Virus record (IMG/VR): IMGVR_UViG_3300046804_006785
DNA length: 64,000 bases
Direction: 5' to 3' (one strand)
Origin: a virus
The stretch's first letter is position 1. Each line of letters opens with the position of its first letter. Under the pieces are notes generated by a model that was given only the letters and a program-made list of their open reading frames with translations, was not told the DNA's origin and made no database searches. Made by a program: the position numbers and the translations under genes. Shown here piece by piece: positions 1,515 to 35,636 of this stretch.

Positions 1515-1695
1515 GTATAAATACTCCCTTAATAGGGAGTTGGATTGAAACTTTTTGTCGCCCATAATTCAGTATTACTCATTCCGTATAAATACTCCCT
1601 TAATAGGGAGTTGGATTGAAACACAAGTGCGGTGATTGTGGTAAATCTTTCAATGTATGTATAAATACTCCCTTAATAGGGAGTTGGATTGAAAC
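1515..1695 (+). CRISPR. CRISPR mini-array, 3 identical 37-nt repeats and 2 spacers (34 and 36 nt)
   Basis: GTATAAATACTCCCTTAATAGGGAGTTGGATTGAAAC at 1515-1551, 1586-1622, 1659-1695; hairpin ACTCCC/GGGAGT; 3' end ATTGAAAC. Confidence 0.95.
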
Positions 1696-4198: not shown

Positions 4199-4265
4199 TC
4201 ATTAAATAATATACCTTAACCAGAATAAACCCACTACCAAAACTCTACAGGTAGCGGGTTATTTT

Positions 4266-6587: not shown

Positions 6588-6655
6588 ACTATTATTTTAC
6601 TTGACATTGTTTTATAACTGTACTATTATTTTAGAATAATGTCAAGCAAAAAGGT

Positions 6656-7039: not shown

Positions 7040-7290
7040 TGTACTTAGTTAATGGTCGGGTAAAACAGCTAAAAGAACGTATGATAGATATCTATAAATA
7101 CGATTCTAGTGGCTGTTGTATTATGGAGTATTTATGCTTTAAAGATGGTTCTATAATGTTTGCTGAAGAATGTATAGAACTGTCATTTAAAGGATTGCGA
7201 GAATACTTTTTGATGCAAGTTACTAAGCTGATGATGAGGTTTCATTATTGGAATAAGGAACTTGGTCTATGGCTGAAAAAAGAACTTTAA
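7036..7290 (+). CDS. hypothetical protein
   Basis: ATGA overlap with the GNAT gene. Confidence 0.55.
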   Translation: MMYLVNGRVKQLKERMIDIYKYDSSGCCIMEYLCFKDGSIMFAEECIELSFKGLREYFLMQVTKLMMRFHYWNKELGLWLKKEL

Positions 7291-7568
7291 CTTTAGGAGA
7301 AAACATCATGGATTTAGAAGACATTGAAATAAGAATCGAAGTCTTGGAAGCTGGCATAGTAGAACAAGAGGACTTAATTAAAAGGCTTAAAGATGATGAG
7401 GAATCTAACAATACAGATCATTCTTCAAACATCAAACAAGCTAGAGAGGAAATAAGACAGCTAGAAATGGAGATTGAATATCTAAAGTCTAGGGTAAACT
7501 TTGAAGATCATTATGAGATTGACGATTTAAAGTCTGGCATTAATTCTTACGATTACTACGAGGACTAA
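7269..7568 (+). CDS. acidic coiled-coil protein, tandem paralog 1
   Basis: Shares DHxSNIxQA and C-terminal YDYYED with 7572-7805. Confidence 0.7.
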   Translation: MAEKRTLTLGENIMDLEDIEIRIEVLEAGIVEQEDLIKRLKDDEESNNTDHSSNIKQAREEIRQLEMEIEYLKSRVNFEDHYEIDDLKSGINSYDYYED

Positions 7569-7571
7569 ACC

Positions 7572-7805
7572 ATGAACACTATGACCTTGGAAGAAATTCA
7601 AAACCTGATTGAAGACCTTGAGGCTGAAATTGAGGAAAAGCAAAGACTAATTAAGCAGTTTGAAAATGATGATTATGATTATGGACTAGATCATTTTTCA
7701 AATATCAATCAAGCTAAAAGCTTAGTCCAACAACTGAAAATGGAAGTAGATCAACTTCAGATCAAAATTGATACTGAAGATTATTACGACTATTATGAAG
7801 ATTAA
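7572..7805 (+). CDS. acidic coiled-coil protein, tandem paralog 2
   Basis: Paralog of the preceding ORF. Confidence 0.7.
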   Translation: MNTMTLEEIQNLIEDLEAEIEEKQRLIKQFENDDYDYGLDHFSNINQAKSLVQQLKMEVDQLQIKIDTEDYYDYYED

Positions 7806-8124
7806 CACTATCTATAAATCTTCAGATTATACCCATCTATCACAGTGTCAAACTATTTGGTGGGTATGTTTTCTTCTCCAGTCAGGAGACACTTACCAGT
7901 CTAAAATACAAGCTGATTTAAAACAGTATCTTACTTTAAAATTATCAGCTTGCGTTTTAAATAATGCTTTAAAGTTTATGCTTGCTGAAAAGTTAATTAT
8001 TAGCTATCAGCAACCAATCAAAGGTAGAGGACAAGCACGGAAAATGTATCAGGTTAATCCTGATAGTCAAGCGATTGTTAAAGACTTTGCAAACCTATGG
8101 AGACAAATCAATGAAACAGTATAG
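7795..8124 (+). CDS. pex: Pex-like PadR-family winged-helix regulator (circadian period-extender homolog)
   Basis: LSACVLNNALKFM...KGRGQARKMYQV...ANLW matches the recalled cyanobacterial Pex pattern LSDTVLYxALKFL...GRGRPRRMYQ...AQLW; ATG at 7795 preferred. Confidence 0.75.
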   Translation: MKINTIYKSSDYTHLSQCQTIWWVCFLLQSGDTYQSKIQADLKQYLTLKLSACVLNNALKFMLAEKLIISYQQPIKGRGQARKMYQVNPDSQAIVKDFANLWRQINETV

Positions 8125-8329
8125 ATTAGCTATCATGCCTTATGATGATGATGCTAGTAGGAAAATTTGTGGTAGATTGAACGCTATTTGGGGTTATGGC
8201 GTTTTCCGTGAGTGTAGAAATGATGATATCAAACATCTTGGGCATTTAAAATGGGATGACTGGGAAAGTGATATCGCCGCTATCCAAAAAGATTTTCCTA
8301 ATGTCAAGATCCAGGTAAAGATTGATTAG
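8111..8329 (+). CDS. hypothetical protein
   Basis: ORF (MKQYRLAIMP...) overlapping the pex stop, followed by terminator 8339-8360. Confidence 0.55.
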   Translation: MKQYRLAIMPYDDDASRKICGRLNAIWGYGVFRECRNDDIKHLGHLKWDDWESDIAAIQKDFPNVKIQVKID

Positions 8330-8383
8330 TTTAAATAGTCCCCTAAAGAGGGGATTTTTTATTTATTAAGAGGGTTTTTAATC

Positions 8384-9472
8384 ATGTCTCTAGTTCAAAA
8401 ATACCGTCCCCAAACTTTAAAGGAAGTAGTTGGTCAACGTCTTACCACTACAACTTTAATCAATTCCATTAATAAGCAACAATTACATTCTGCCTATTTA
8501 TTTTCAGGTGCGCGCGGTACTGGCAAAACATCAACAGCACGGGCTTTGGCTAAATCCCTAAACTGTCAAACTGGTATCACTTCAGATCCTTGTGGAACTT
8601 GTAGAACTTGTTTAGATATCCAAGCAGGTATTAGCTTTGGTATCTATGAGATAGATTGTGCAACTAACAATGGCGTTGATCATGCCCGTGAACTAGTTTC
8701 TAAGGTCTGCTATACAGGTTATTCTCGCTATAAGGTCTATATTTTAGATGAGGCTCATAATTTAACTAAACAAGCTTTTGATGCCCTGTTAAAGACTTTA
8801 GAAGAACCCGGTCAAAAGGTTGTGTTTATCTTGGTTACAACTGAGTTATCAAAAGTTCCTAAAACTATTCAGTCTAGGTGTCAAGCCTTTAACTTTACAC
8901 CAATTAAAGATTATGAACTGCGATCATACTGCCAAAAAATTTTAGAAGAGGAAGATTATAGTATTGCACCGGATTTACTCAAGATTCTAGTCAGTCATGG
9001 TGACGGTATTCTTAGAGATACTTTGACGCTTTTGGATAAAGTTATTCTGTCAGAAGCTAAAACTGAGGAAGATATCTATGAACTTTTGGGCGTTGTACCT
9101 GCCGTGAATATGATAACTTTACTGGATGCCTGTATTAACCAAGATTACACGGCAATCTATAAACAGTTAAAGGAACTTTTTAAGTCCGGTAGTGATCCAA
9201 TTGTGTTGTTGGGTGAGATTAGTAATTTTGTGAGGAATGCGATCGCTTCACAATCCACACCCATCGACTACACCATTATGACCTGTGACTCAAAAACCTA
9301 TAATGCTGCTAGGGCTTGGGGTAGTAAATTACCAATTAATAAACTGGTAGACGCGTCAATTTTACTTAGAGAATCCGAGACTGAGTTCAATAATTCCAAG
9401 TTCCCAAAGTTGACTCTAGAGTCAAATCTCCTAAAATTATCACAGATGTTTGCAATTAATAAAAATCTGTGA
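8384..9472 (+). CDS. dnaX: DNA polymerase III gamma/tau clamp-loader subunit
   Basis: KYRPQT, GARGTGKT, CxxCxxC zinc site, DEAH, ALLKTLEEP, SRC motif. Confidence 0.95.
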   Translation: MSLVQKYRPQTLKEVVGQRLTTTTLINSINKQQLHSAYLFSGARGTGKTSTARALAKSLNCQTGITSDPCGTCRTCLDIQAGISFGIYEIDCATNNGVDHARELVSKVCYTGYSRYKVYILDEAHNLTKQAFDALLKTLEEPGQKVVFILVTTELSKVPKTIQSRCQAFNFTPIKDYELRSYCQKILEEEDYSIAPDLLKILVSHGDGILRDTLTLLDKVILSEAKTEEDIYELLGVVPAVNMITLLDACINQDYTAIYKQLKELFKSGSDPIVLLGEISNFVRNAIASQSTPIDYTIMTCDSKTYNAARAWGSKLPINKLVDASILLRESETEFNNSKFPKLTLESNLLKLSQMFAINKNL

Positions 9473-9623
9473 TATAAGATAGATCAAGTGTCCTTGTGAA
9501 AGTACATCTTGTTTTACCTTTGTTTTATTCTATCATCCTTACTACTGTGGTAATTGTAGTAAGGATTTTTTGTATATATGAACTTTTGTATGTTAACTTA
9601 GTAGTAATTATGTATACGTAGGT

Positions 9624-9908
9624 ATGGGGATATTAAAGGGGGTGAATATGAGCATAGAAGAGGAAGAATCTAAAGATCCGGGTAACATGAAACTATCATC
9701 TTGGATAGTCATGTTGGTTACTGGGATAATTTCTACAAGCGCAATCAGCGTTGTCAATACTTTATCCCAGAACTATTCTGAAATAGTAAGGATGCGGGTA
9801 GAACTGTCAACTTTAAATGAAAATAACAAGACTATCTTAGCTGCATTGGCTAGTCAGGATGAGAGGATCAGAGCATTGGAAATTAAAAATAGTGCAGGGA
9901 AAAATTAA
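9624..9908 (+). CDS. small membrane protein (one TM helix plus coiled coil)
   Basis: Hydrophobic WIVMLVTGIISTSAISVV followed by heptad tail ERIRALE. Confidence 0.6.
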   Translation: MGILKGVNMSIEEEESKDPGNMKLSSWIVMLVTGIISTSAISVVNTLSQNYSEIVRMRVELSTLNENNKTILAALASQDERIRALEIKNSAGKN

Positions 9909-9975
9909 ATATATTTTAATAAATTTAACCCGGATCTTATCTTTAGATGTGGGTTTTTTAGTACCTAAAATAAAT

Positions 9976-10000
9976 AAAAAACCCGCCATTAGTGACGGGT
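9976..10000 (-). terminator. repeated terminator CCCGTCAnnnATGGCGGG-Un
   Basis: Same hairpin family recurs at about 20528-20552, 23930-23951 and 39451-39475. Confidence 0.7.
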
Positions 10001-10010
10001 AAAGCTTGTC

Positions 10011-10430
10011 TTATAATCTGCTTCTTTCCAAATGCTTATCCTCAATAGTAGGACTTGCACCCGCCCATTGCTCAGTCACAACCTCTATGCTTAGAATACG
10101 CAGTAAACCAGCATAGTTAAATAGCACTTGACCGTCCTCTGTGGTTTCCCGTTTATTTTGTGGTGCGAGAAACACCGCAATCCCAGCCTTCAGCCATTGC
10201 TCTTGTATTGGTAGTGGTGCAACGGCCACTACTATAGAGTCTTTGGGGATACTATGAGCAACCGCTTCAGTCTCACCCAATGGAATCTCTAAGAACTTGA
10301 TATTATCACCATCTTTAGAAAGATTAGAAATTGTTCCCCTAAATTGTTGGGTGATCGTATTACCTAAATCAGCAACCATTTGAGGTTGTGCATCATGGCG
10401 AGAAAAGAAATATACGTTCATGTTGTCCAC
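10011..10430 (-). CDS. hypothetical protein
   Basis: 139-aa ORF in a minus-strand operon. Confidence 0.65.
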   Translation of the reverse strand: MDNMNVYFFSRHDAQPQMVADLGNTITQQFRGTISNLSKDGDNIKFLEIPLGETEAVAHSIPKDSIVVAVAPLPIQEQWLKAGIAVFLAPQNKRETTEDGQVLFNYAGLLRILSIEVVTEQWAGASPTIEDKHLERSRL

Positions 10431-10783
10431 TCCAGAAATTCAATTTTAAACTTATATGCACTTACGATTATCTGAGAATCAAATTCTGATGCAAGCATAC
10501 TATTTGATTCATAGGGTTTAACACCTTCACACCAGCTAATGCTGATATGTGGTGTTTCAATCTGGCAGGGAATACTTTTAGGTAATCTTAAAGCTACCGC
10601 TTGTATTTTACCGTTCCAAGCCTCATACAGTGTTGAAGCTATGAATACTTTACCTTCCCAGTCTATCCAGTCCTCACGTTCTACTCCAAACTGGAGTGTT
10701 ACGTGGTGTGGCGTTCCATAGGGATAACGCTTAGGGATGGTTAGGGGTGACTGGATAACACCCCATAGAATACCCTTAGTCAT
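10418..10783 (-). CDS. 2H phosphoesterase family protein
   Basis: Two HxT/S motifs (PHHVTLQF, TPHISISW); ATG 10783 overlaps the upstream stop (ATGACTAA). Confidence 0.75.
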   Translation of the reverse strand: MTKGILWGVIQSPLTIPKRYPYGTPHHVTLQFGVEREDWIDWEGKVFIASTLYEAWNGKIQAVALRLPKSIPCQIETPHISISWCEGVKPYESNSMLASEFDSQIIVSAYKFKIEFLEWTT

Positions 10784-11072
10784 CGTCACCATAATCACCC
10801 CATTCGCGGGGTTCACCACTTGGCTTATAGGTTGGGGATGTACTACCCGGATCTGGTACTCTAAACCTGTCTCTAAACTCTTTTGGAACAGAGTCCAGAA
10901 TAGCGTTAGAGTGTGCGTGGGAGATACCACTAAAATTCTTAATATTCCAAGTGTTGTCTATTTCTTGGCGTTTTTCACCTTCAAAAGTTAGGCGACGGCT
11001 TTTACCATTTAGGACTTGGAAAAGGTCATCTTTTCCAGAGAAGTTGGAATTGTCAACAAAGTATCCTTTCAT
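10776..11072 (-). CDS. hypothetical protein
   Basis: ORF with AAAGGA RBS downstream of hammerhead 1. Confidence 0.65.
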   Translation of the reverse strand: MKGYFVDNSNFSGKDDLFQVLNGKSRRLTFEGEKRQEIDNTWNIKNFSGISHAHSNAILDSVPKEFRDRFRVPDPGSTSPTYKPSGEPREWGDYGDDD

Positions 11073-11099
11073 CTTATTTCCTTTGTGGGTGTGAATTTA

Positions 11100-11162
11100 T
11101 AGCTTCCCACTACTACCAAGATGGTAGTTTCGAGAGGTAGCTAACCTTTCTCATCAGGTGGG
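11100..11162 (-). ncRNA. type I hammerhead ribozyme 1 (GUA cleavage triplet)
   Basis: cccac-CUGAUGA-gaaagg[uuagcua]ccucuc-GAAA-cuacc[aucuu]gguag-UA-guggg-aagcua. Confidence 0.9.
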
Positions 11163-11165
11163 TTA

Positions 11166-11528
11166 TTAGTAGCTAGATACTAACGAATAAACTAACTCCG
11201 CTTGCCGTTTTTTTGTCTTTTTCTCAGGTGGTAACTCTACTACCTGATACTCGACTAATGAGACTTTAACGCCCATCTTCAGAAGATGGAGTACTGTTTG
11301 ACCTTCCATAGAATCTGCTAAAACTATATCACCTGAAACCAGGTGAATAGTTTGACTTTTAACTATGGAAACAGAGCCATAATTATCGGTTTCTTCTTGT
11401 TCACCAACAAGAAGAGATCCATTTTCTAATGAGAATACAAATCTATTGTATTCTTCCTTAGTAAATGTAATGTCAGCAGTTACATTTAATTTTTTAGAAA
11501 CTTCTTTGTTTAAAAAAGAGTAAATCAT
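11166..11528 (-). CDS. hypothetical protein
   Basis: 120-aa ORF with AAGGAG RBS. Confidence 0.65.
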   Translation of the reverse strand: MIYSFLNKEVSKKLNVTADITFTKEEYNRFVFSLENGSLLVGEQEETDNYGSVSIVKSQTIHLVSGDIVLADSMEGQTVLHLLKMGVKVSLVEYQVVELPPEKKTKKRQAELVYSLVSSY

Positions 11529-11557
11529 AAAGTAGTCTCCTTGTGGGTTTGAAACTT

Positions 11558-11619
11558 TAGCTTCCCACTATTGTTTAAAAACAATTTCGGGAGGTAGCCA
11601 GCCTCCCTCATCAGGCGGG
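11558..11619 (-). ncRNA. type I hammerhead ribozyme 2 (AUA cleavage triplet)
   Basis: cccgc-CUGAUGA-gggagg[cuggcua]ccuccc-GAAA-uuguu[uuua]aacaa-UA-guggg-aagcua. Confidence 0.9.
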
Positions 11620-11621
11620 TA

Positions 11622-11855
11622 TTAGAAATGTTTAATACCTCTCTTTTTTTTCATTTCTTCAATTGTAGAATAATAGTATTCTCCGTTAAAGTCCCCACCA
11701 GATTCAGAAGCAAATTTAATTGCTTCTTTCTTGTCTGTAAAAATATGACAACTTAAAACTTCGCTACCATCTTGATATCTATAAGTCCATACATCCCAGA
11801 ACTTCTGTTCTTGGGGTTTTGTTAAATAGTTAGGTCTTTCTAATGCTTTACTCAT
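11622..11855 (-). CDS. hypothetical protein
   Basis: 77-aa ORF with GAGGA RBS and its own promoter. Confidence 0.65.
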   Translation of the reverse strand: MSKALERPNYLTKPQEQKFWDVWTYRYQDGSEVLSCHIFTDKKEAIKFASESGGDFNGEYYYSTIEEMKKKRGIKHF

Positions 11856-11880
11856 TTGTTTTATTCCTCTTTCGGTTTCT

Positions 11881-11920
11881 TATTTATAACTGTATATCAG
11901 TTATTTTGAATTGTCAATAC
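11881..11920 (-). promoter_or_regulatory. repeated promoter with AATAACTGATAT box
   Basis: TTGACA-N17-TACAGT; near-identical 40-mers at 12986-13025 and 13888-13927. Confidence 0.8.
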
Positions 11921-11951
11921 CTAAATTAAATTTATTTTGTGGGTATAATTA

Positions 11952-12014
11952 TGACTTCCCACCACTACCAAGATGGTAGTTTCGTCCGGTAGTCAGCCGG
12001 ACTCATCAGGTGGG
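11952..12014 (-). ncRNA. type I hammerhead ribozyme 3 (non-canonical GUG triplet)
   Basis: cccac-CUGAUGA-guccgg[cugacua]ccggac-GAAA-cuacc[aucuu]gguag-UG-guggg-aaguca. Confidence 0.85.
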
Positions 12015-12938
12015 TTAGGCTACAGTTTGCAGCCATTTTTCTAAAGGCTTAATGATGCCACCTTTGGCTTTTTGAGCCTTCTTATAGGCTTCGTAGGCAG
12101 CTTCACGTTGCTGTTGTGCTTTTTTAGCTTCTTCCTTAACAAAAGCTTCTGCTGTTCTAGCGTCGGCATAAACTTTAAAAGCTTTTGCTCTCTCAAGAGC
12201 TTCTTTTGCTGGTATAGCGATTGCATCTACCTTTTTATCTTCATCAAACTTGTAAATATATTTAGTTACTTCCTCTGGTAACTGCTCATGAGAAACAGCA
12301 CCTTTTCTGCACTCAAAAACTGCATTGGCTACAGGCCACATACAGATGTTTATATAGTTTTCATACTCTTGCAACTCAGGATACAAGCTATAAAAATACT
12401 TTTTCAGTTCTGGATACTGGGCTTTTTTAGAAGCCATTGGATGTTTTGCTGCTACTGGCTTAGTTTTAGCTTCCCAGTGTTTTACCCAGTTTTCAAACAC
12501 TTTCTGATCACGGTTGATCAGTTGTTGTGTTTTCTTCCATTCATTTGCAATTTCTACACCACGCAATTTTAACTGCTCCCGTTCACCATAAACGGGGTGT
12601 CTCCAAAAAGAAATGGTTTCTGTAGCTGTACCTGTTTGAGCTACAAATACTTCTTGAAAAACCTGTCTCCATTCATCAGAGGTAAACGAAACTTCAATGG
12701 CTTTTTGAGCCTCTAACCGAGTAGCATACTCAGTTTTTTGTGCTGCTGTCAAAGCAGGTAGCTGTATATTGAAAGGGAACTCATTCCCTTCTTTGTCTAG
12801 AAGAATCACACCTTCTGAATCATAGGAGTTTTCAATCTGAAAGTGTGTTCCTTCAATTAAAAGCTTGCCGTTTTTATAAACACCTGGTTCTTTGTCAGAA
12901 TCAATTTCAACTAATTCATAATTTTTGTAAATAGTCAT
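12015..12938 (-). CDS. hypothetical protein
   Basis: 307-aa ORF with RBS and promoter. Confidence 0.7.
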   Translation of the reverse strand: MTIYKNYELVEIDSDKEPGVYKNGKLLIEGTHFQIENSYDSEGVILLDKEGNEFPFNIQLPALTAAQKTEYATRLEAQKAIEVSFTSDEWRQVFQEVFVAQTGTATETISFWRHPVYGEREQLKLRGVEIANEWKKTQQLINRDQKVFENWVKHWEAKTKPVAAKHPMASKKAQYPELKKYFYSLYPELQEYENYINICMWPVANAVFECRKGAVSHEQLPEEVTKYIYKFDEDKKVDAIAIPAKEALERAKAFKVYADARTAEAFVKEEAKKAQQQREAAYEAYKKAQKAKGGIIKPLEKWLQTVA

Positions 12939-12985
12939 TTTGTTTTCTTCCTTTGTTAAGTCTTGTGAGTGGTTTTTGCTCTCTA

Positions 12986-13025
12986 TATTTATAACTGTAT
13001 ATCAGTTATTTTATTTTGTCAATAC
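12986..13025 (-). promoter_or_regulatory. repeated promoter, copy 2
   Basis: TTGACA-N17-TACAGT with AATAACTGATAT. Confidence 0.8.
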
Positions 13026-13120
13026 TCAAATTAAAATTTTTTTTGTGATACAAGATTGTGATTTTTTATGACAATTAGAGTAGTTTTGCCCGGTAGTTAG
13101 CCGGACTATTTAGACAATCT

Positions 13121-13843
13121 TTACATAGAGTCTCTGACACTCCGATCTGTAGTGTACCAAACTTTATTCTTGTTTTCATTATGAAGACGCTGTTCTTGAT
13201 CTTTGATGCGTCTTAATTTTCCTGATGCTAAAATTTCGTTCCCTCTTGTTTCAAAAGGTATATAGTTTTCAGCCAGCACAGATTCTATAAAATCTGTGGA
13301 TATTTTGCGAGGGTTTGTAATTAAAATGGTTACAACGTCAGAATTTCTTGGCATTATATGAACAGCCTCCCAAGGAAATCCTAAAGATTTTATGAGAGCG
13401 TGTAACTTTTCAGAGTTCATGTTGTTAATTTCTCTGATTTTTTTCTCTATATTTTTTTCTTCTTCAGTCTTTATTTTACCTTCAAACTCAAAGAAATCTC
13501 TGAGTGAACAATAAGTATCGTCAAAATTTATTTGTTTACTTACTGCTTTTAATTTTTTAAATTCCCAGGCTTTAACTTCTGCAAATTGTTCCGCAGTTAA
13601 TAATAATGCTGATTTTTTAAACTGGCATTTAAGGATACTTGCCAATTGTTTAATCTGGTCTTGATCCATCTCACACCAAATAACATGATCAAAGTTTAAA
13701 GTTTCCATTTGCTGCTTTACTTCTTCTAGTTTTACGTCAATCTTTAACAATTCATCCATCCATTTCTGGATGTTTTGGCGACCACCCACACGAGTGATTA
13801 AATTGATTAAAGTTTGTTGTCTAGCTTGTAAATCTTTCATCAA
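13121..13843 (-). CDS. hypothetical protein
   Basis: 240-aa ORF. Confidence 0.65.
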   Translation of the reverse strand: MMKDLQARQQTLINLITRVGGRQNIQKWMDELLKIDVKLEEVKQQMETLNFDHVIWCEMDQDQIKQLASILKCQFKKSALLLTAEQFAEVKAWEFKKLKAVSKQINFDDTYCSLRDFFEFEGKIKTEEEKNIEKKIREINNMNSEKLHALIKSLGFPWEAVHIMPRNSDVVTILITNPRKISTDFIESVLAENYIPFETRGNEILASGKLRRIKDQEQRLHNENKNKVWYTTDRSVRDSM

Positions 13844-13887
13844 CTTAACCAGGGTGTGAGTGGTTTTTTGTTTTTCCCTGTCTCCTA

Positions 13888-13927
13888 TGTTTATAACTGT
13901 ATATCAGTTATTTCTGATTGTCAATAC
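13888..13927 (-). promoter_or_regulatory. repeated promoter, copy 3
   Basis: TTGACA-N17-TACAGT with AATAACTGATAT. Confidence 0.8.
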
Positions 13928-14123
13928 TTAAATCTAAAATTCTTTTGTGGTGTAATATTTTACCATCTACTACATCTTCCAGATACTTACCAATGCTAGG
14001 AAGCAATACACCATCCCTAGTGTAGTAGTATCCTAGTTCGATGATCTGTTCCTCTAGTTGCTGACGTTTATCAGCGTCCATTCGGACTATGAAGGTGGCT
14101 TTGTTTTGTTTTTTCCTGCCCAT
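13908..14123 (-). CDS. ribbon-helix-helix-like DNA-binding protein
   Basis: N-terminal TFIVRMDADKRQQLE resembles an RHH strand plus helix; AAGGA RBS. Confidence 0.5.
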   Translation of the reverse strand: MGRKKQNKATFIVRMDADKRQQLEEQIIELGYYYTRDGVLLPSIGKYLEDVVDGKILHHKRILDLSIDNQK

Positions 14124-14226
14124 GATGATTGTCCTTGCATATCAGTTATTTAAGATTAGCAGAATTATGGGGTTTAGGTTAGATTTTTAGTTAGCTTGTT
14201 GTTTTAGAGAATTTTAAAATAAAGAC

Positions 14227-14255
14227 TTGACACAATCAGAAATATTTGATATATT
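14227..14255 (+). promoter_or_regulatory. promoter of the structured ncRNA
   Basis: TTGACA 14227-14232, N17, TATATT 14250-14255. Confidence 0.75.
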
Positions 14256-14261
14256 AGATAT

Positions 14262-14399
14262 GTGCTTGTAGCACTGCGCGTCAGACTTCAATTTTTAGAT
14301 TGTTGTCGTTTGACTTCTAACGCTGGGAAAAATAAGAAGTCAGGGTTGCAACCTGGGTTAAGGAGACGAAGCAAAAGCTTCAAGGTACTTCCCTCAAAA
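14262..14399 (+). ncRNA. structured RNA (tracr/scaffold-like) joined to a solo CRISPR repeat
   Basis: Hairpins gtgct/agcac, tgacttct/agaagtca, cagg-ttg/caacctg, gaagc/gcttc; no ORF; ends directly at the repeat. Confidence 0.6.
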
Positions 14400-14436
14400 G
14401 CTAAAATACTCCCTTAACAAGGAGTTGGATTGAAAC
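14400..14436 (+). CRISPR. solo CRISPR repeat (32/37 identical to the array repeat)
   Basis: GCTAAAATACTCCCTTAACAAGGAGTTGGATTGAAAC. Confidence 0.85.
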
Positions 14437-15126
14437 GGATAAGTCCCCTAAATCAGATAAAACAGCACTTTGATAGCTTTACTCACCTTTCTCAAGTGAC
14501 ACAGATTGTTTAAGGTGACTGTGTTAGGCAATCATGATGAATAGTTCACTAGAACATTTTATTTTTTTACTCAAAATGTTCAGTCATTTGTCCTGCAAAT
14601 TTTTAAGATTTAAGCGTATATTAATAGATTAATCTGTACAATTTTCAAAAATTAGTATAAATAGGAACTCTCTATTTTTGACTAAAGCTAAAAAGTATAT
14701 TACTAACTAGCAACTAGCATACTATTTAAGTTATTGCTTAGGCACTTTTCGCGCCTCAATTCTAAGGGTACAGTCTGGAAGCCTTATTCTATATAGATTG
14801 GTGATCCAAACTTTGAAATAATAGAAATAATATTACAGAACTTGGATCACTCTTTTTGTATCAATTTTTTAAAAATCCTTATATAGTAATAGTCTTAGCT
14901 ATTATTTTGCGTAAGTATTTATTTTATACTTTAGACTTTAAGTAAGAAAGGTGTCGGAAGATTGCTTAAAATACCTGAACGTTAATCATAAATGGTCTGA
15001 AAATCATATAAAGTGTTCAGGCTGTGAAATTACTTATAAAATTTCTATAGTTATTTTAACTAAGTAGTAAAATAAATCTAAGTATGTCTGAATATTTTAC
15101 TATTTTATTGATTTTTTCAGACATAT

Positions 15127-15507: not shown

Positions 15508-16192
15508 CCATCTTTGCGACGGATTGATCAAATTAGAACCCATAGACAACAAGCCGGGCTATCGTAGGATGATGCTAGACCCTACTGTAAGAGGCTGCCA
15601 TTATCTCATTGAGGATAAGGACTATTACCTTAAAGAAGTCCCCTTAATGGATATTGCGCCAAAATACCATAACAGTCTACTCAGAATCGCTCTAAAATCA
15701 GCAATTCTGGTAGATAAGGGCTATTGGATTATTGACTACGTTTACCACGCCACTGAGTTTGAAGTTTGGGCATTAAAATCTAAATATTCACAGTCCCAAA
15801 TAACCGATATTTGTGAAAAGCTACTATCTGCCTCAGTTGAAAGTATCTTGGATGAGAATTATCAGAGGAAATACGGCGATGAAGATGGCTTTGGCATGAT
15901 GAGCATTATCTTTGAAGATAAGATAGCTCCTGGACTAAAGGTATCTGAGTGTGGTGAATTACCTAACGGTATAGAAGCATCATTTCTTATCTGTGATCCT
16001 GATGCAATCCTTGAAGAGTTATATGGACTAAATATCAGTCATGTCCACAAATCACAGTTGATAAATGAAGCTAAAAAGTTGTTAGCTAAGGTCAAACCTG
16101 CTGAACCAAAACCAGTATCCGCCAAAATGAAGGCTAAACAGGAAAAACGCCTAAAAAATTGGAATCAGTCTAAAAAGAAGACTGACTCCTAA
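15500..16192 (+). CDS. hypothetical protein
   Basis: 230-aa ORF overlapping the previous stop. Confidence 0.65.
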   Translation: MYNHLCDGLIKLEPIDNKPGYRRMMLDPTVRGCHYLIEDKDYYLKEVPLMDIAPKYHNSLLRIALKSAILVDKGYWIIDYVYHATEFEVWALKSKYSQSQITDICEKLLSASVESILDENYQRKYGDEDGFGMMSIIFEDKIAPGLKVSECGELPNGIEASFLICDPDAILEELYGLNISHVHKSQLINEAKKLLAKVKPAEPKPVSAKMKAKQEKRLKNWNQSKKKTDS

Positions 16193-16663: not shown

Positions 16664-17037
16664 AAGGATAGTTTGATTATTTTAGGAGATATTTTACCAG
16701 AAATCCCACTAAAACCCTACTTTTTAGCCATTAAAAATTTATCAGTTTTTATATTCTGAGTAGAATATAAAAAGATAGAATCGCTGTAACCTGTACTGGT
16801 TATGACTTCCAGTTATTTTATTATGCAATTTTTTCAATTGTGTTTGAGTGCAAAACATGACAAAACACACCAATAGTATGGTGCAAAACAGGATTTTAAG
16901 TATAAATGCCTATGCAAAATATACTATTATTAGCCTGATAGTATGGTGCAGAATAGGTCAGCACTTTTTGGCAATGTTATTTGATTAGCTGGAAGCATAG
17001 AAAAACCTCAAATATTCATATCTGAGGTTTTTTATAA

Positions 17038-17355
17038 TTACTGATTAATCATTAAGTTAAACCCTTTGGGTGGTTTAAAGTCTCTTAATTCCTTCTTAGG
17101 GGCTTTCAGCACTCGACTTAGATTTTTGCTAATAAAGACAGCTAGATTTATTTCCCAAGCTAAAATCTCAGCTTCTTTAGGATCAGCACCAATATAGAAA
17201 TCATCATGATGTACTATGCTGATTTCTCCAGTCGCTTTATGAATAGTCACGTCATCATTACCATCTGCTGTTAAATCACTTTTTAGCTTCCAAGGATTAT
17301 AGATAGTAATATGCTTTTCACTGTATCTCCCTGAAAAATCAATTACTAAATTCAT
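17038..17355 (-). CDS. hypothetical protein
   Basis: 105-aa ORF followed by terminator about 17000-17033. Confidence 0.6.
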   Translation of the reverse strand: MNLVIDFSGRYSEKHITIYNPWKLKSDLTADGNDDVTIHKATGEISIVHHDDFYIGADPKEAEILAWEINLAVFISKNLSRVLKAPKKELRDFKPPKGFNLMINQ

Positions 17356-17376
17356 GTGTTTTAGTCTCTACATTTT

Positions 17377-17613
17377 TCAACTGTAAACAATCACCTGTTT
17401 AATAATCTCTAGGGGATATCTAATCAAAACCCTAACTCCCGTTCTATCTGATAGATAATCTACTTTGTTTTCCTCAAGGGTCTTGTAGAATCTTTCTATT
17501 GCTTGTTCAAAGTTGTCAGAGCTTCGATCCGCGTTGACACTTTTTATGAAAGACGCAACCATGCGTCTAATTTTACTTGGGAACTTAGTCAATTTGACAT
17601 TTAAGTACAACAT
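17377..17613 (-). CDS. hypothetical protein
   Basis: 78-aa ORF with AAGGA RBS. Confidence 0.55.
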   Translation of the reverse strand: MLYLNVKLTKFPSKIRRMVASFIKSVNADRSSDNFEQAIERFYKTLEENKVDYLSDRTGVRVLIRYPLEIIKQVIVYS

Positions 17614-17798
17614 ATTTTAGTCCTTACAATTACCAAACTGTAAACAATCACCCGTTTGATCATCTCTAGCTGATATAGAGTGATCATCTCTAGCTGCTAA
17701 ACTATTACAAAACATTAAGCTACTTAATAAAGCAGCCAAAATAAGATAAACTGTTTTCATTCTTTTTTACTTCCTTGAGTAAAAGATTTAACAGGTAG
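17611..17798. repeat. 188-bp direct repeat, copy 1
   Basis: Matches 18217-18404 with one mismatch seen by eye. Confidence 0.9.
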
Positions 17799-17830
17799 GT
17801 TTGCTTCCCGGCGTTCTACCTGTTTTGTTG

Positions 17831-18019
17831 TTAAAGGTCAAAAGTTTCCAGTTCGTAGTCATCAGAGACTACTTTAAAGAATGTTTCACTTTCTTCCGTT
17901 CTATAAGTTTTATTAAGGTAGGCCGCCACTTTATCAGCACAGTCTTGGCAAATACCTTCAATAATTATATCTTCCTGAAAATAGTCTTGATCAAGACTAT
18001 CTGCAATGATTATTTTCAT
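17831..18019 (-). CDS. hypothetical protein
   Basis: 62-aa ORF with GGAG RBS and an upstream promoter. Confidence 0.6.
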   Translation of the reverse strand: MKIIIADSLDQDYFQEDIIIEGICQDCADKVAAYLNKTYRTEESETFFKVVSDDYELETFDL

Positions 18020-18216
18020 GATTTAAAACTCCATTTTCTCTAGTTATAGCTACTATATAAAATAATGTCAAGCATTTTATGTACTTAAATTTATTTTATA
18101 CAGCAACAGCATCACCGTAATAACGACTATGCCACCCGTTAGCTTTGCGTCGTTCCACATATTCTTTCCATTTGTCCGATCTATGGAAAGGTCGTTTATA
18201 TTGATTCTGAATACAG

Positions 18217-18404
18217 CATATTTTAGTCCCTACAATTACCAAACTGTAAACAATCACCCGTTTGATCATCTCTAGCTGATATAGAGTGATCATCTCTAGC
18301 TGCTAAACTATTACAAAACATTAAGCTACTTAATAAAGCAGCCAAAATAAGATAAACTGTTTTCATTCTTTTTTACTTCCTTGAGTAAAAGATTTAACAG
18401 GTAG
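18217..18404. repeat. 188-bp direct repeat, copy 2
   Basis: Matches 17611-17798; truncates tnsB. Confidence 0.9.
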
Positions 18405-18742
18405 AGTTTGCTACCCTTATTTCCTTCTTTATATGTATTGATAATGAACTTTTGCCACTGAGAATCTATACGGTGTTTGCCTTTGTCAGCGCGTTGAGTG
18501 GTTTGCAGTGCAGCTAAACCCTGTTCCTCCCATTTTTTAACCAGTCTGCGTACTGTTCGCACTGATTTACCTAGTTTGGCTGCTACTTCCCTTTGTCTTT
18601 CTCCGTAGGTTATGCGATCGCATGGTTCAAGTAGTTTTTGAATTAGTTCCAATAGTTCTTTATCACCTGCGGATAGTTCGGTGATAATGTCACTACCTTC
18701 TACTTCATCGTCATTGGGTTGATCATTTTGTGTTTCTAGCAT
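18405..18742 (-). pseudogene. tnsB: N-terminal fragment of Tn7-like/type V-K CAST transposase TnsB
   Basis: IQKLLEPCDRITYG...SVRTVRRLVKKWE...RADKGKHRI...TYKEGNKGSK matches the recalled cyanobacterial V-K TnsB N-terminus; DDE domain absent. Confidence 0.9.
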
Positions 18743-19008
18743 ATATGTTTATTAAAAACATAGTTGAATTATACTCTATCGGAGGACAATTAATTTGTCA
18801 AGTCTTGTGAAAACTTGGAAAATAGGGATTTTAAATACAGGACAACTAATTTGTCAAATGTTGAAACTCGGACAGCTATTTTGTCAATTAGTGTCTAGGA
18901 AACTAAAGATAGGGTAAAATAACAAAACCCTTGCTATGTAAGGGTTTAAGGGTTAATATTTTTGCGAACATTAATTTGGCAAGTGGTCAAATAATTTGGC
19001 AAACGACA
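18405..19008 (-). mobile_element. remnant end of a Tn7-like/CAST transposon
   Basis: Terminal TGTCGTTTGCCAAATTATTTG starting at 19008; TnsB-site-like TTGACAAAwTArnTGTCC at 18784-18801, 18840-18857, 18870-18887. Confidence 0.8.
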
Positions 19009-19237
19009 CCTGTGCGGAAATAATTTGATCTGCTAATTCTAACTCTCCTGCAACTTGTCCCATTTCTTTCTCCAGTCTAATTACTTGTTGTGCCGATATC
19101 TCTGTCGGCAATGCCATATTCTTTTTGACTCGCACCATTGAATTGCCCAAGTTACCGATAGCTGTTGGATTTTGTCCACTACCAACTAATTTGCTATCTT
19201 TACCTGCAAGCGTTCCCCCGAATAAATTGTCCATCAT
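19009..19237 (-). pseudogene. gene interrupted by the transposon end
   Basis: ORF 18971-19237 runs into the TGT terminus at 19008. Confidence 0.55.
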
Positions 19238-19553
19238 AATTTATATTTCCTTGATTTTGATTGCTGTTGAATGATAAGAAGAAGCAAGCGATGACGACTA
19301 ATAAAGATGTTCCTAAAAAGCCTAGAGTCATCAAATTAATCATCTTTGATTGTTCATCAATTCGCCTATCTGCTTCTGATTTGATTCTGCGATTTTGATC
19401 TTGATGATAGTCGTTGGCTTGTATTAGCTGTTGAACTATATCAGAACTGGGTGAGCCTTTAACGATAAGCTCACCACTGGGTTTGACGGTAAACTCTACC
19501 GGGTTCTTGATAGTCGTTTCCTCCCACTGGTCTGGGAGGCTGTGATGCTGCAT
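19200..19553 (-). CDS. membrane protein
   Basis: Coiled coil plus hydrophobic LMTLGFLGTSLLVVIACFFL. Confidence 0.6.
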   Translation of the reverse strand: MQHHSLPDQWEETTIKNPVEFTVKPSGELIVKGSPSSDIVQQLIQANDYHQDQNRRIKSEADRRIDEQSKMINLMTLGFLGTSLLVVIACFFLSFNSNQNQGNINYDGQFIRGNACR

Positions 19554-19618
19554 AGAATAATGCTCCTGTTAATACAAAACACTGAATAAATACGGCAGCA
19601 ACCATCCAGTTCGATGGC

Positions 19619-19987
19619 TTAATTATTGACGATATCTGCAAAAGCTTCGTCGAAGATTGATCCAATTTGTCCACGAAACGTCGCGGATTCATTAGCATAT
19701 TCTTGAAGACCAGCAGATACTTTGGAAACGATGTTCGGTGAAATTTGTTTGTAACGATTTACAATTCTCGCTGCGGCTGCATTTTCAACTTCAGTTGATT
19801 TTCTGTCCGACATCTCGTACATTGCGTCGGATTCATTGGCAACCGCAGCGCGGAGATTTTGGACTGCAATTTTTAAGTTTTCAACGCCTTGATTATTATT
19901 AGTTGTCGCTGGTGTACTTTTCTTGCCTTTCTTGCCAGGCTCAACAGTAGCCAGTCCGCCGCCTCCATTATTTTGAGGGACAGCCAA
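19619..19987 (-). CDS. hypothetical protein
   Basis: 122-aa ORF, probably 5'-truncated. Confidence 0.5.
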   Translation of the reverse strand: MAVPQNNGGGGLATVEPGKKGKKSTPATTNNNQGVENLKIAVQNLRAAVANESDAMYEMSDRKSTEVENAAAARIVNRYKQISPNIVSKVSAGLQEYANESATFRGQIGSIFDEAFADIVNN

Positions 19988-20885
19988 ACCAGCATTTGCA
20001 GCAGCATCAATTTCACCTGCTATGAACTGGGCGTTTGCCTGTAATCGTCGAAGGAATCAAAGGTGCTGACGTACCATCGTGGTTAAATCGGCAAATTGGC
20101 AAGTCTCCCACAATAGCTACGTTAAGGCGATGGGCAAAAAAACATAATCTGGAGTTTTCTACTCACCTACCCGTACCCGCCAAGACGCTAGATACGTTTT
20201 TGAGAATAGCGTGATCTTCCCAAATCGTGCCAATTATTAATTCCCATTAATTTCGATATGATTTTAATGGGTTTATTTATACCTAATATTGATTGTATAG
20301 TTAAAGAATTATGCCGATATTTGCGATAATGCTTAACGATAAGCTTGGAAATGATTATAAAATAAGATTCTAGACAGTTACACCACAACGGCACAATTTA
20401 TTTATGAATGACAAACAAGAACAATATCGCCAAATTCTGGATAGATACAAGAAGCTGGGATGGATGCCCATGAGGGATATAGATTGGATTTTGGCAACGC
20501 TGGCGGAACTACTGGAAAATAGACAATAAAAAACCCGCCATCGCTGACGGGTTAAAATTATTATTTTTTGTCTTTCTCCTCCTTGTCTTTCTTTCTCTTG
20601 GGAGGGAGAAAAGTCTTGAACATTAATTGCTGCATTTTTTCTTCATCTTGTTTATTCGCCATTTTTCTACTCTTTTTTTCTGATCTGGATTTTGGTGTCT
20701 GTGTTCCCTGCAATACCCTGTCCGATTTTGGGGAGACAGGTGCTTGCAGCACACCGTGTATGGGTTTTTTAGACCCCTACAGATATTTACTCCTTCCTGA
20801 ACACGCGCCACCGACAGCACGTATTCAAGAAGATTTGATGTTAGTTTTCTGGCTGGTTCTAGGGAGTAACAGCCAGAAACCTTGA

Positions 20886-21296
20886 TTACTTTCCCCGCAG
20901 TGCCTCTAAGTCTGCGGGGTCATCGTCGAAACAATACTCTCTCTCGGATATTTGGAGTAAAGTTTTTAAATGCTTCTCTGCTGGTTCAAAGCAGAGGGGA
21001 ATACAGAATTCTATTGCTTTTTCAAATTCCCAATGTCCAGCGCGAGGCAGTCTGCCATCGGGATACTGAATCGTTATGGCAAGCCCGTTAAGACTTGCCG
21101 TTTCATTTAATCCTTCGTCTCCGGCTAATGCCCAAGAGCAAAGATGCTCCCTCATTGAGGGTCCACCATAACCTCCGCTCCAGCCGGAGCAAAGGTAAGC
21201 TACAGAATTAGCGAAAGCCGCTTTATGGCTCATGCTTGCGTCAGGCTTATTGGCACCAGCCCAGCCCATCGCTTTTTTCAGAAATTCGTCATTCAT
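20886..21296 (-). CDS. hypothetical protein
   Basis: 136-aa ORF in the GC-richer island. Confidence 0.6.
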   Translation of the reverse strand: MNDEFLKKAMGWAGANKPDASMSHKAAFANSVAYLCSGWSGGYGGPSMREHLCSWALAGDEGLNETASLNGLAITIQYPDGRLPRAGHWEFEKAIEFCIPLCFEPAEKHLKTLLQISEREYCFDDDPADLEALRGK

Positions 21297-21656
21297 TGTT
21301 CATTTGTCAAAATAAGTTTTTAGCTATTTCTCAATCCTTAACGATTCAACGCAAGGATCTGCTTTTAGGCTTTGCACCTGTGGCTGGGGTATATGGCATA
21401 TCAAAAGATAATTTCCAATACCAGCCTTTCTAGTCAGGCAAGGATGGTTGTCAAGGTTGAAACCATCCTTTGTCTTTAAGATCGCGAGGGGCATTTTTCT
21501 ACAGGAAACCTCGAATTAAATCCCACTGGAGTGGGAATTCAAAATTTTCCGGATGGGAGAGCAGCATTGAATCGCCCTCTTTTAGCTCGGTTCGCATCTT
21601 TGCACCCATCTCTGTAGATGAGTTTTTGACGCAGTACAGGAATTTTTACTCCTTGC

Positions 21657-21720
21657 TTCAATAATCTATTTATATCAGAAGTGAAAGCACTTGTCAAGCA
21701 CTTCTGAGATAAAATTTTTA
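21657..21720 (-). repeat. 64-bp promoter/operator direct repeat (second copy 23849-23912)
   Basis: Identical 64-mers; inverted repeat TCAGAAGTG...CACTTCTGA surrounds a minus-strand TTGACA. Confidence 0.85.
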
Positions 21721-21904
21721 TCTCTTAAATTCACCCCACAAGATAGAGTGAGGATACTAACCAAGCAGTTAAAATTCCAAGAGCCGCACCAGCGGCACAT
21801 TCCATTAAAATCTCAAACATAATTAACTCTGCGGTGTGAAAGTGGTTTACCGCTACACTCAAGGGAGTGTTTCGGGGAGTTACCATCTCCCCTCGTCAGG
21901 CGGC

Positions 21905-23749
21905 TCAATTGATGAGCTTGGCTTGCTGGAACATATTCAGGACTACGGAGCGATCGCTCTCACTAGGGTGAGAGTTTCTAAACCCGTAGAACTGATTGCA
22001 ACGGTAGGCGCGATCGCCTTTTACGAACTCAAGGGTGTACTTGAGAATGCCGTTGTGGTAAACCGCAACAATTACGCTACTTCCTTGGTTGACGGCAGCA
22101 CCATAGCCGCCAACGCAGTGAGATAGGATCTCACCGTAACGTTTTAGTTGGTGCTGGTGCTTGGGGATTTCTAGTTCCCAAGACATATCTAAGGAGGATA
22201 AGCCGTCAAGGGGAGCAAAATCGGAGTTAACTTTTAACTCAAAATCAGGAAGGATTTTGACATACTCTTTCGCTAACACTTCATGAGTGCTAAACCAGCA
22301 GCGGACGCGCCCCAAATCGGGGGACACACCACTGTTTTGTAACTGGTTGAAGAGATATCCAGTGTCCCGGACATAATCGCCGGTGACATCTTGTGTTTTA
22401 CCACGCAGGGTCATCTTGGTGGTTTGCACCATCCTCAGCGCGGGCTTTTCGCCCAGGAATTTGAGGAATGGTACGGCATCCTCTTTGTAGGGAACACATT
22501 CAGAAGCGAGATACTTCTGAACTAAATCTTCCTTACCGTAAGCGAGTGCGATCGCCCATTTTCTTTGATCAGGTGTAGAGGATTTGAACAACTTCTGGAC
22601 TTGTTTGCCGCCACATCCAAATAGAATGCGGCATACGCCACTTAGTCCATCGCTGTATTTAGCGAGAAGTTTAATGGCGAACTCCTCCTCGATTATCCTG
22701 TGTTTTTCGCTGATTTCAGTATTTAAGAATTTATGAGGAAGCCCCCACAAAACTTCTAATGCTCGATTTCTAATGTAAGCACCGACGCGAGGATCATAAC
22801 TACAAGAATCGCAGTCGTTAAACAACAAGAATTTGACGGCTTCGCCAGGATTCTTACAAAGCTGGTTGAACTTACTCCAAAACTCATTCTTGTTTTGCTT
22901 ACACATTGACCATGTGATCGCGCCCAAGGCACGATACTTGGGCGCCATTTCACCTAGCCGCTTGGCGAATCTCTTGGGAATGGAACTATCCCACTTCCAT
23001 GCCTTCAAGGCAGGCATTAAAGTGCGCCAAACATCGCCGGGACGGCTAGAGGCGTGGTTGCCTTTAATGATTTGAACTTTTGCCCACAAGGGCAAGTTGC
23101 GATAGTTCGGATTTGTCGCCACTAGGGCGACTTGATCAAGGCTTGCTTGATATGGGCTATTTAACCCCCTCTTTTTCACCCATACGTGGGGAATTAATTC
23201 GTAAACCTTGATGGCATCTTCTACCCAACGGATGCCATAACTCCAGAGGGTGTCAGCCTCATTTTTAAACTCTGTGCCGTCATGCCAATAACCGCAGTCC
23301 ATCAAGGGCTGCGAAACTCTGAAATCATCGTTGTTGGCATCGTTGGCTTGCCATAACACCAACTTCTTCCTGAAGTGGTACTTGGCAACGTAATCCGTCA
23401 ACGGTTTCCTCTTCCTGAAGTGGTACTTGGCAAGGTAATCCGTCAACGGTTTCCCGTTGTAGTCGCGGACTGCTTCATGAAGCAGATTTTCACCCCCATG
23501 AGTCAGAGAAAGGGAAGAAATTTCTTTTTTCAAGTCCTGACCCCGGATGCCTTCATTCCAGAAGATTTCACGCAGATAGCTTAAATCTCCCTCAGTAGCA
23601 GGACGAGCAGGGGCAGAAATTTCGATTTCTTCTAAAAAATTACCATCATAAACATAGCCCTCTTCAAAGAGGGCTTCCTCTAAAGAGAGGATGGCTGCAT
23701 ACTCAGAAGAACTGAAAGCGCGAGAAAAACGGGTTGCTGTCAGAGACAT
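21905..23749 (-). CDS. PcfJ-like domain protein
   Basis: C-terminal WELEIPK...LKRYGEILSHCVGGY...YTLEF...QFYGFRN fits PcfJ; 15-aa internal duplication. Confidence 0.7.
   Translation of the reverse strand: MSLTATRFSRAFSSSEYAAILSLEEALFEEGYVYDGNFLEEIEISAPARPATEGDLSYLREIFWNEGIRGQDLKKEISSLSLTHGGENLLHEAVRDYNGKPLTDYLAKYHFRKRKPLTDYVAKYHFRKKLVLWQANDANNDDFRVSQPLMDCGYWHDGTEFKNEADTLWSYGIRWVEDAIKVYELIPHVWVKKRGLNSPYQASLDQVALVATNPNYRNLPLWAKVQIIKGNHASSRPGDVWRTLMPALKAWKWDSSIPKRFAKRLGEMAPKYRALGAITWSMCKQNKNEFWSKFNQLCKNPGEAVKFLLFNDCDSCSYDPRVGAYIRNRALEVLWGLPHKFLNTEISEKHRIIEEEFAIKLLAKYSDGLSGVCRILFGCGGKQVQKLFKSSTPDQRKWAIALAYGKEDLVQKYLASECVPYKEDAVPFLKFLGEKPALRMVQTTKMTLRGKTQDVTGDYVRDTGYLFNQLQNSGVSPDLGRVRCWFSTHEVLAKEYVKILPDFELKVNSDFAPLDGLSSLDMSWELEIPKHQHQLKRYGEILSHCVGGYGAAVNQGSSVIVAVYHNGILKYTLEFVKGDRAYRCNQFYGFRNSHPSESDRSVVLNMFQQAKLIN
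23366..23454. repeat. 45-bp in-frame tandem duplication
   Basis: Encodes KPLTDYLAKYHFRKR / KPLTDYVAKYHFRKK. Confidence 0.85.
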
Positions 23750-29359: not shown

Positions 29360-29432
29360 TGGTCTATACTAAAGTCAAAAGAAATTGCTGATAGCCTTAC
29401 TGATAGTCAAACAGCGTATGACTCATGACGTG

Positions 29433-29468
29433 ATATAAATACTTCCTGAAAAGGAGTTGGATTGAAAC
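29433..29468 (+). CRISPR. solo degenerate CRISPR repeat
   Basis: ATATAAATACTTCCTGAAAAGGAGTTGGATTGAAAC; last 16 nt identical to the array repeat. Confidence 0.75.
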
Positions 29469-35460: not shown

Positions 35461-35636
35461 TTATAAGCACTTAGCTAGGAACAATTTATCAGTTTCAATC
35501 CGTTTCAATCCGTTTCAATCCAACTCACACGAAAGTGAGTATTTACTGTGATCAACGCTTACAAGCATTTAGCTAGGAATAGCTTATCAGATCGTTCTAG
35601 TTTCAATCCAACTCCCTATTAAGGGAGTATTTATAT
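35461..35636 (-). CRISPR. mini-array: 2 repeats, a GGATTGAAAC stutter, and 2 spacer-like units copying the adjacent gene's 3' end
   Basis: Repeat A 35636-35600 (36/37 to consensus); repeat B 35548-35512 with compensatory stem ACTCAC/GTGAGT; two extra 10-mers 35511-35492. Confidence 0.9.

Follow-up and report, generated by a model that had tools for sequence, protein, structure and literature searches.

The 64,000-nucleotide stretch of viral DNA analysed here (IMG/VR record IMGVR_UViG_3300046804_006785, called the window below) raises a question that is easily put: what is a single CRISPR repeat doing immediately behind a promoter and a leader of its own in a phage genome, and how did it get there? 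The origin and the role of viral solitary repeat units are a matter of debate, in which such units figure as decoys, as guides or as handles for recombination. A preliminary description had read positions 14227-14480 as a natural single-guide-like unit and had offered four options for it, i.e., a tracr-crRNA for a compact type V effector, the RNA partner of a type IV-B complex, a CreTA-like unit, or an RNA anti-CRISPR of the solitary-repeat kind. The features on which the discussion turns, and the haplotypes of the locus in related phages, are collected in Table 1.

Table 1. Features of the window and arrangement of the 14.4-kb locus in the window phage and its relatives
Feature or haplotype	Coordinates	Strand	Basis or arrangement
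Three-repeat array, same repeat family	1515..1695	+	leader at 1338-1514
71-aa ORF, no known family	13908..14123	-	divergently transcribed, always adjoins the unit; context only
Putative sigma-70-type promoter	14227..14255	+	TTGACA, 17 nt, TATATT; TG-extended -10
5' leader (the 'scaffold' of the preliminary description), native, non-coding, 138 nt	14262..14399	+	haplotype comparison
Leader segment A	14262-14307	+	
Leader segment B	14308-14355	+	
Leader segment C	14356-14399	+	
Degenerate type I-C repeat, 37 nt	14400..14436	+	similarity to the three-repeat array of the window
Native flank, would-be guide (the 'spacer' of the preliminary description)	14437..14472	+	predicted unstructured in RNA
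Weak terminator-like hairpin (14536-14563), then T run	14536..14570	+	not called by a simple terminator scan
Second lone repeat of the family	29432..29468	+	22 nt, then strong terminator hairpin
Two further repeat units of the family	35491..35636	-	one followed by tandem copies of the 10-nt handle
Haplotype of the window, L202, L203			A-B-C, repeat, flank
Haplotype of G001			A-B-C, repeat, 44-nt spacer, second repeat, 134 nt, then the flank of the window
Haplotype of L186			A-B-C, repeat, then units of 13 nt + repeat
Haplotype of L193			A, 12 nt + canonical-type repeat, B-C, repeat; flank shortened by 9 nt
Haplotype of L211			A, 12 nt + canonical-type repeat, B-C, repeat (3' end altered), duplicated 10-nt handle, long native sequence
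Haplotype of L172			as L193, with B deleted and another flank
Haplotype of L204			repeat joined inside the 134-nt stretch
Haplotype of L205			A-B-C, repeat, duplicated handle, about 300 nt of native sequence, then the flank of the window
Haplotypes of L206, L207, L210			different leader; repeats at other points

Identity of the repeat and of its effector

The 37-nt repeat that was said to follow the leader directly is indeed there, at 14400-14436, and its resemblance to other sequences of the window is far beyond chance. It is 84% identical to the three-repeat array at 1515-1695, the last 16 nt being identical, and this 3' 16-mer has seven matches in the window if up to one mismatch is allowed and eight if up to three are, the latter compared to 0.6 expected in shuffles. 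No second repeat was found within 100 nt of it. A repeat that stands alone in an intergenic region, more than 100 bp from any other and behind a promoter of its own, is a solitary repeat unit, which is thus the correct class among the four options listed.

The layout is that of type I-C repeats, with a hairpin (14408-14425; 5 bp and an 8-nt loop) followed by an 11-nt handle (14426-14436) that ends in GGATTGAAAC, and Cas5c is predicted to cut between 14425 and 14426, because this is how I-C repeats are known to be processed (bioRxiv 10.1101/2024.12.27.630466). The hairpin of this copy is weakened (-5.5 vs -10.7 kcal/mol). Across 22 distinct variants of the repeat, conservation reaches 99% in the handle, against 80-86% in the stem arms, 72% in the eight 5' bases and 69% in the loop, and a hairpin with at least 4-5 bp persists beside the cut site, in one case (at 35512) through a two-sided change. 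Since the handle is both a part of the downstream product and the best conserved element of the repeat, this distribution argues that the RNA starting at the handle matters.

The assignment to type I-C comes from a sister phage. Scanning IMG/VR with the 3' 16-mer of the repeat led to G001 (a 118,553-bp record) and to a shorter copy of the same phage. G001 is collinear with positions 829-14496 of the window at 90-94% identity, and it carries two arrays of this very repeat, with 30 and 21 copies. Between the two arrays stand genes for Cas7/Csd2 (281 bits, cut-off 182), Cas5c (131 bits, cut-off 85), Cas8c/Csd1 (174 bits, which is below its cut-off) and a Cas3 with HD and helicase parts, and it is because cas3, cas5c, cas8c and cas7 lie between arrays of the same repeat that we take the repeat to be type I-C. 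In I-C systems processing is carried out by Cas5c and there is no tracrRNA (bioRxiv 10.1101/2024.12.27.630466; PMC10651486), so that a repeat of this type needs none. The module in G001 (16803-22097, i.e., L048:16803-20000 and L049:19-2097) has the layout cas3 | cas5c-cas8c-cas7 and comes without cas1, cas2 and cas4; a search of G001 for Cas1 and for type IV-B genes found neither. It documents a type I-C interference module without adaptation genes in probable cyanophages. Arrays next to these cas genes are found in G001 and not in the window, where a search of the 64 kb for I-C cas genes gave none.

As to the host, the Cas7 of G001 is 70% identical to that of Dolichospermum sp. BR01, with close homologues also from Sphaerospermopsis. 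The BR01 chromosome has the same order of cas3 | cas5c-cas8c-cas7 (L200 5355-11782) and is likewise adaptation-less, and its array repeat has a different hairpin and the same final 10 nt, i.e., the handle, as the phage repeat. The window phage is probably a cyanophage. A scan of species genomes for the 16-mer gave single matches and no array among the 80 of 112 stretches listed; blastn of the unit and of both long G001 arrays against the phage collection gave no match, and IMG/VR scans with a motif from the scaffold and one from the flank returned G001 and chance matches only.

The repeat family has other members that deserve description in their own right. The homologue in G001 of the small array of the window is the beginning of the 30-repeat array, i.e., its leader and first repeats. 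Its spacer 2 (1623-1658) is, over 24 of 25 nt, the reverse complement of a spacer in the long array of G001 (L048 at about 15775-15811); judging by this match, it is one target sampled on both strands. Behind the second lone repeat of the window, in the stretch 29432-29530, the terminator hairpin (z of -3.1) places its loop some 37-40 nt after the repeat, the spacing that type I-C crRNA-like RNAs are reported to have at their 3' ends; in L184, the counterpart of this unit has another repeat copy 23 nt upstream, joined behind a GTC site. On the minus strand at 35491-35527, and also in L188, L205 and L211, one repeat is followed by two extra tandem copies of its own 10-nt handle. Such a flank, if made into a guide, would match all repeats of the family at their 3' ends, each behind a PAM-like GTT; at the 14427 site the match extends to 14 nt. 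Self-regulation of the repeat loci or slippage could account for such a flank. About 300 nt of the window (6730-7030, most of a 127-aa ORF) are replaced in G001 by a single repeat behind a GTA site (7160-7196). L188 (3525-3630) has a head-to-head fusion of two of the family's arrays, 33 nt apart, from which the leaders and cas genes have been lost. Finally, just beyond the long array of G001 (L048:14273-14309), and in L183 near the start of its minus strand, stands a single repeat that belongs to another family and ends in GGGATTGAAAG. The window lacks it; it may be a mimic of a further host system.

Promoter, leader and flank

The consensus promoter named in the preliminary description holds up as a prediction: it matches the consensus at 11 of 12 positions, TG precedes its -10 element, it lies 145 nt upstream of the repeat with a predicted transcription start at about 14262, and it is kept in sister haplotypes. 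The structured scaffold that was thought to follow it fares less well. Hairpins are predicted in the leader, as claimed, but its fold is no better than that of dinucleotide shuffles (z = -0.79 without the repeat and -0.91 with it), which takes the weight from the 'at least four hairpins', and in the minimum-energy fold of the whole leader the 5' arm of the repeat pairs with the start of segment C and the repeat's own hairpin is not formed. The comparison with covariance models of known RNA families gave nothing for the unit: Rfam has no match in the window at gathering thresholds, and permissive thresholds on 14150-14700 returned noise only. The proposed anti-repeat, 8 nt with two G-U pairs (14287-14294 against the 3' end of the repeat), is likewise at the level of chance, as 87% of leaders, once shuffled, still form an ungapped run of at least 8 pairs with the repeat (G-U allowed), and the real leader reaches 11 nt at most (P = 0.11). 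Compared by eye, the leader has no alignable similarity to that of the long arrays beyond the -35 region.

We do not take a 51-aa ORF (14262-14417) for a gene, since no ribosome-binding site precedes its start, which coincides with the predicted start of transcription, and since the ORF is interrupted in relatives, by an insertion of 49 nt in L193 and L211 and by a deletion of 48 nt in L172. PHROGs and Pfam had nothing for the genes neighbouring the unit. About 140 nt after the repeat lies an inverted-repeat motif (AAATGTTCAG.CATTTG; 14573-14600 of the window and about 11500 of L184), which is conserved and common to both diverged families of the unit described below; it may be a protein-binding site.

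What the leader and the flank are was settled by comparing relatives, which came from G001, one metagenome scan and the contigs encoding the exact 71-aa protein; the last, 14 contigs, supplied the haplotypes. Identical units recur in several metagenome samples, and the identical locus is found also on a 131-kb metagenome contig. Relatives reached through the neighbouring 240-aa protein have only 13725-13924 in common with the window and are without the unit, and for the downstream 230-aa protein no relatives were found. Alignment of the roughly ten haplotypes shows that the leader and the supposed spacer are both native sequence of a fast-changing (hypervariable) non-coding locus, in which the repeat abuts many different points of one native sequence. 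The claim of a conserved scaffold does not survive this comparison, as the leader is split by a repeat in L193 and L211, has lost B in L172, and is replaced altogether in L206, L207 and L210; a scaffold of the tracr kind would not withstand having a repeat inserted into it or a third of it removed. Nor was the 'spacer' acquired: the flank at 14437-14472 is ordinary downstream DNA in five other haplotypes (G001, L204, L205, L206 and L207), where it stands without a repeat, behind CTC, and at least 215 nt away from the repeat.

L204-L207 represent longer native versions of the locus, and the window the most deleted one. Relative to G001, the window lacks the 215 nt directly after the repeat, and relative to the longest haplotype it has lost several hundred nt (in an unrooted comparison), the lost part being the one found as guides in the mini-arrays of its sisters. 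In a second, diverged family of the unit (L184 and the minus strand of L172), the leader is unrelated and the flank homologous, and the repeat enters this flank at points 12 and 33 nt upstream of the one used in the window. The native sequence of L205, L206 and L207 contains a repeat-like hairpin without the handle, the first dozen bases of which are the unusual 5' ends of the repeats in the unit; this identity suggests that left junctions were formed there by microhomology.

Junctions and the position of the PAM

For each junction between a repeat and its flank, a repeat-free allele was sought and the three bases preceding the junction point were read in it. Such an allele was available for 21 junctions, 13 of which follow GTN and six CTN, leaving two others; with a GT background of 0.0545, the 13 GTN junctions have P = 5e-12. 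For the KilA-N junction at 1696 no clear repeat-free context was found. These alignments show that the junctions sit almost always directly after a GTN or CTN triplet, i.e., in the position of a PAM. Two genuine array spacers from a sister strain agree in this respect: one matches G001 1639-1680 over 42 of 42 nt with GTG in front, and the other matches L183 over 35 of 36 nt with GTC in front. The 44-nt spacer of G001 is itself the native sequence that the L205 and L207 alleles carry behind GTT, and G001's own allele differs from it in the first 8 nt. At the left junctions there are short microhomologies or stretches of 12-13 foreign nt; the right ones are exact.

The usual PAM of type I-C systems is TTC. 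The data above point to GTN, or more weakly CTN, as the PAM of this I-C variant. The junction of the window belongs to the CTN ones, the flank being preceded by CTC in five haplotypes, and since this is not the GTN found at the two real protospacers, targeting by the guide that this flank would supply is uncertain.

Origin and role of the unit

Taken together, the reading that we prefer, and to which we would give an even chance, is that 14227-14480 is a promoter-driven, one-repeat type I-C mini-array, or solitary repeat unit, left behind by CRISPR conflict between sister phages, with a Cas5c-cut guide taken from the flank. The unit may be the remnant or the seed of a phage-borne type I-C mini-array. 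The junctions could go back to recombination of a spacer or guide with the target that it matches, or to the use of an array as template in repairing a cut target; the end of the repeat would take the place of the PAM, the DNA on the PAM side would be deleted, and the site would become immune. A transcript from about 14262 would be cut by Cas5c at the predicted site, and the 3' product, i.e., the 11-nt handle plus the flank from 14437 on, would load into the I-C Cascade as a crRNA-like guide and act against sister genomes that still carry the flank sequence behind CTC. Either a co-infecting sister phage or the I-C system of the Nostocales host itself, the repeats of which have the same 10-nt handle, would provide Cas5c and Cascade, and the leader would have no tracr-like role. 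From I-C units with one repeat, Cascade-bound RNAs of 48-50 nt are made that carry an 11-nt handle (bioRxiv 10.1101/2024.12.27.630466), and virus mini-arrays target neighbouring loci of close relatives (PMC6858448). Behind 14437 there is neither a downstream repeat nor a well-placed 3' hairpin to define the 3' end of such a guide.

A wider version of this scheme is possible, if on the doubtful side: lone repeats may be born at CRISPR-targeted sites, where repair or recombination puts a repeat at the PAM and immunises the site, the flank becoming a new guide against genomes that are still free of the repeat. If this is true, the 14.4-kb locus records successive rounds of the process, with repeat positions stepping along one sequence in some ten haplotypes; viral solitary repeat units would have an origin and would be a protein-free, drive-like element; and the window phage, with no I-C genes of its own, would be borrowing Cascade from its host or from rival phages.

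Other readings have to be weighed against the preferred one. The unit could be an RNA anti-CRISPR (Racr), in which a strongly transcribed lone repeat titrates the I-C Cas5c and Cas7 of a rival phage or of the host away from real crRNAs and so shields a phage without I-C genes. Viral solitary repeat units with their own promoter are a described Racr class, of which the type I-C RacrIC1 has been validated (PMC10651486); the window has the repeat and no I-C cas genes, sister phages aim I-C spacers at this lineage, and RacrIF1 owes its inhibition to the RNA that precedes the cut site, so that the 138-nt leader with the hairpin could act likewise. However, a sister phage carries the unit together with I-C genes of its own, where a pure inhibitor would be self-defeating, and conservation is highest in the handle, an element of the downstream product, whereas RacrIF1 tolerated changes in its handle; nor would a decoy explain why junctions take the position of a PAM, and we regard it as unlikely. 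We find it improbable, too, that the repeat is an inert scar, i.e., the footprint of a recombination or deletion that escaped CRISPR targeting, behind a native promoter and in an RNA without present CRISPR function. Such a scar would fit the haplotype of the window being the most deleted one, its degenerate hairpin, the lack of cognate cas genes in the window and the head-to-head fusion of two arrays in one strain, without leaders and cas genes, as a sign of decay in the lineage; it fits badly with a handle that is nearly invariant in 22 variants while other positions drift, and with identical units recurring in several metagenome samples.

The type IV-B genes of the window phage (53155-57250), which have no array, suggest another partner, in that the Csf2/Csf3 backbone of their complex might assemble on handle-bearing RNAs. 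The gene contents of the two phages lend themselves to this idea, the window phage having IV-B genes and dispersed repeats without I-C, and the sister phage I-C without IV-B; moreover, IV-B systems are not known to have an array or a processing enzyme of their own. Yet the repeat demonstrably belongs to an I-C system, the same units are found in the sister phage that is free of IV-B, the nuclease that would process the repeat is absent from the window, and nothing ties the Csf proteins to this handle, all of which makes the partnership very unlikely. Hardly credible is a natural fusion of tracrRNA and crRNA, i.e., a single guide that would serve a type V or TnpB-like nuclease in trans. Its evidence is the 8-nt complementarity between 14287-14294 and the 3' end of the repeat; against it, pairing and fold are both at chance level, Rfam has no match, the repeat is type I-C, and the leader is interrupted, truncated or replaced in relatives. 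That the window holds no Cas12 or TnpB gene had been noted correctly, a search of its ORFs of at least 300 aa for Cas9, Cas12 and TnpB domains having found none. The single-guide reading is thus contradicted on every feature that defines it (anti-repeat, scaffold, effector and repeat class), and what it has in common with the tracrRNA-crRNA or single-guide RNAs of types II and V is the linear order only, of promoter, structured-looking RNA, repeat and unique sequence; the unit differs from them in that its anti-repeat is not significant, its scaffold is not conserved, no effector gene was found in the window and its repeat is that of a class 1 system.

The closest of the known systems are of other kinds. 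With the solitary repeat units and Racrs (Faure et al. 2019; Camara-Wilpert et al. 2023, PMC10651486, RacrIC1) the unit shares a single intergenic phage repeat with its own promoter, no cas genes nearby, and a repeat subtype that matches a system in the likely host group; it differs from them in that the cognate I-C effector is encoded by sister phages and not by the host only, that the handle rather than the hairpin is most conserved, and that the unit belongs to an allelic series with the repeat at different PAM sites along one sequence. Virus mini-CRISPR arrays (Medvedeva et al. 2019, PMC6858448; Iranzo et al. 2020, PMC7099407) likewise have a promoter-containing leader, as here, and one or two spacers, as in sister haplotypes (e.g., G001), which match the neighbouring locus of relatives, the carrier's own copy being mutated or deleted, and they have no adjacent cas genes. 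Unlike them, the copy of the window has no spacer between repeats, its guide would be native flank, its leader is unrelated to that of the long arrays, and some members of the lineage carry interference genes of their own.

The CreTA-like option can be kept in part. A lone I-C repeat can give a crRNA-like RNA, and in I-C crRNA-like RNAs, including the CreA of CreTA (bioRxiv 10.1101/2024.12.27.630466), one degenerate I-C repeat is likewise followed by spacer-like sequence, with Cas5c expected to cut 3' of the hairpin and to leave an 11-nt handle. The unit differs from CreA in that the window contains neither a partially complementary promoter target with a PAM (the best non-self match of the guide in the window is 10 nt, at 44250 behind AGC) nor an associated toxin or defence gene, and in that the 14.4-kb unit has no 3' hairpin at the expected distance, though the unit at 29432 does. 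Spacer-mediated recombination between phages and CRISPR loci (Varble et al. 2019, as cited in PMC8616872) would produce repeat-to-target junctions of the kind seen here; the difference is that in these phages the products are fixed in the genome as lone repeats, at many sites, and that we infer the process.

What the analysis contributes is the cognate type I-C genes, a GTN/CTN rule that draws on 21 junctions together with two protospacers, and the allelic series at 14.4 kb. The locus is a well-resolved natural series of alleles in which lone repeats arise and move at PAM-adjacent positions and DNA targeted by rivals is deleted, and since the cognate I-C effector is known from a sister phage, the role of such repeats can be tested with a few constructs.
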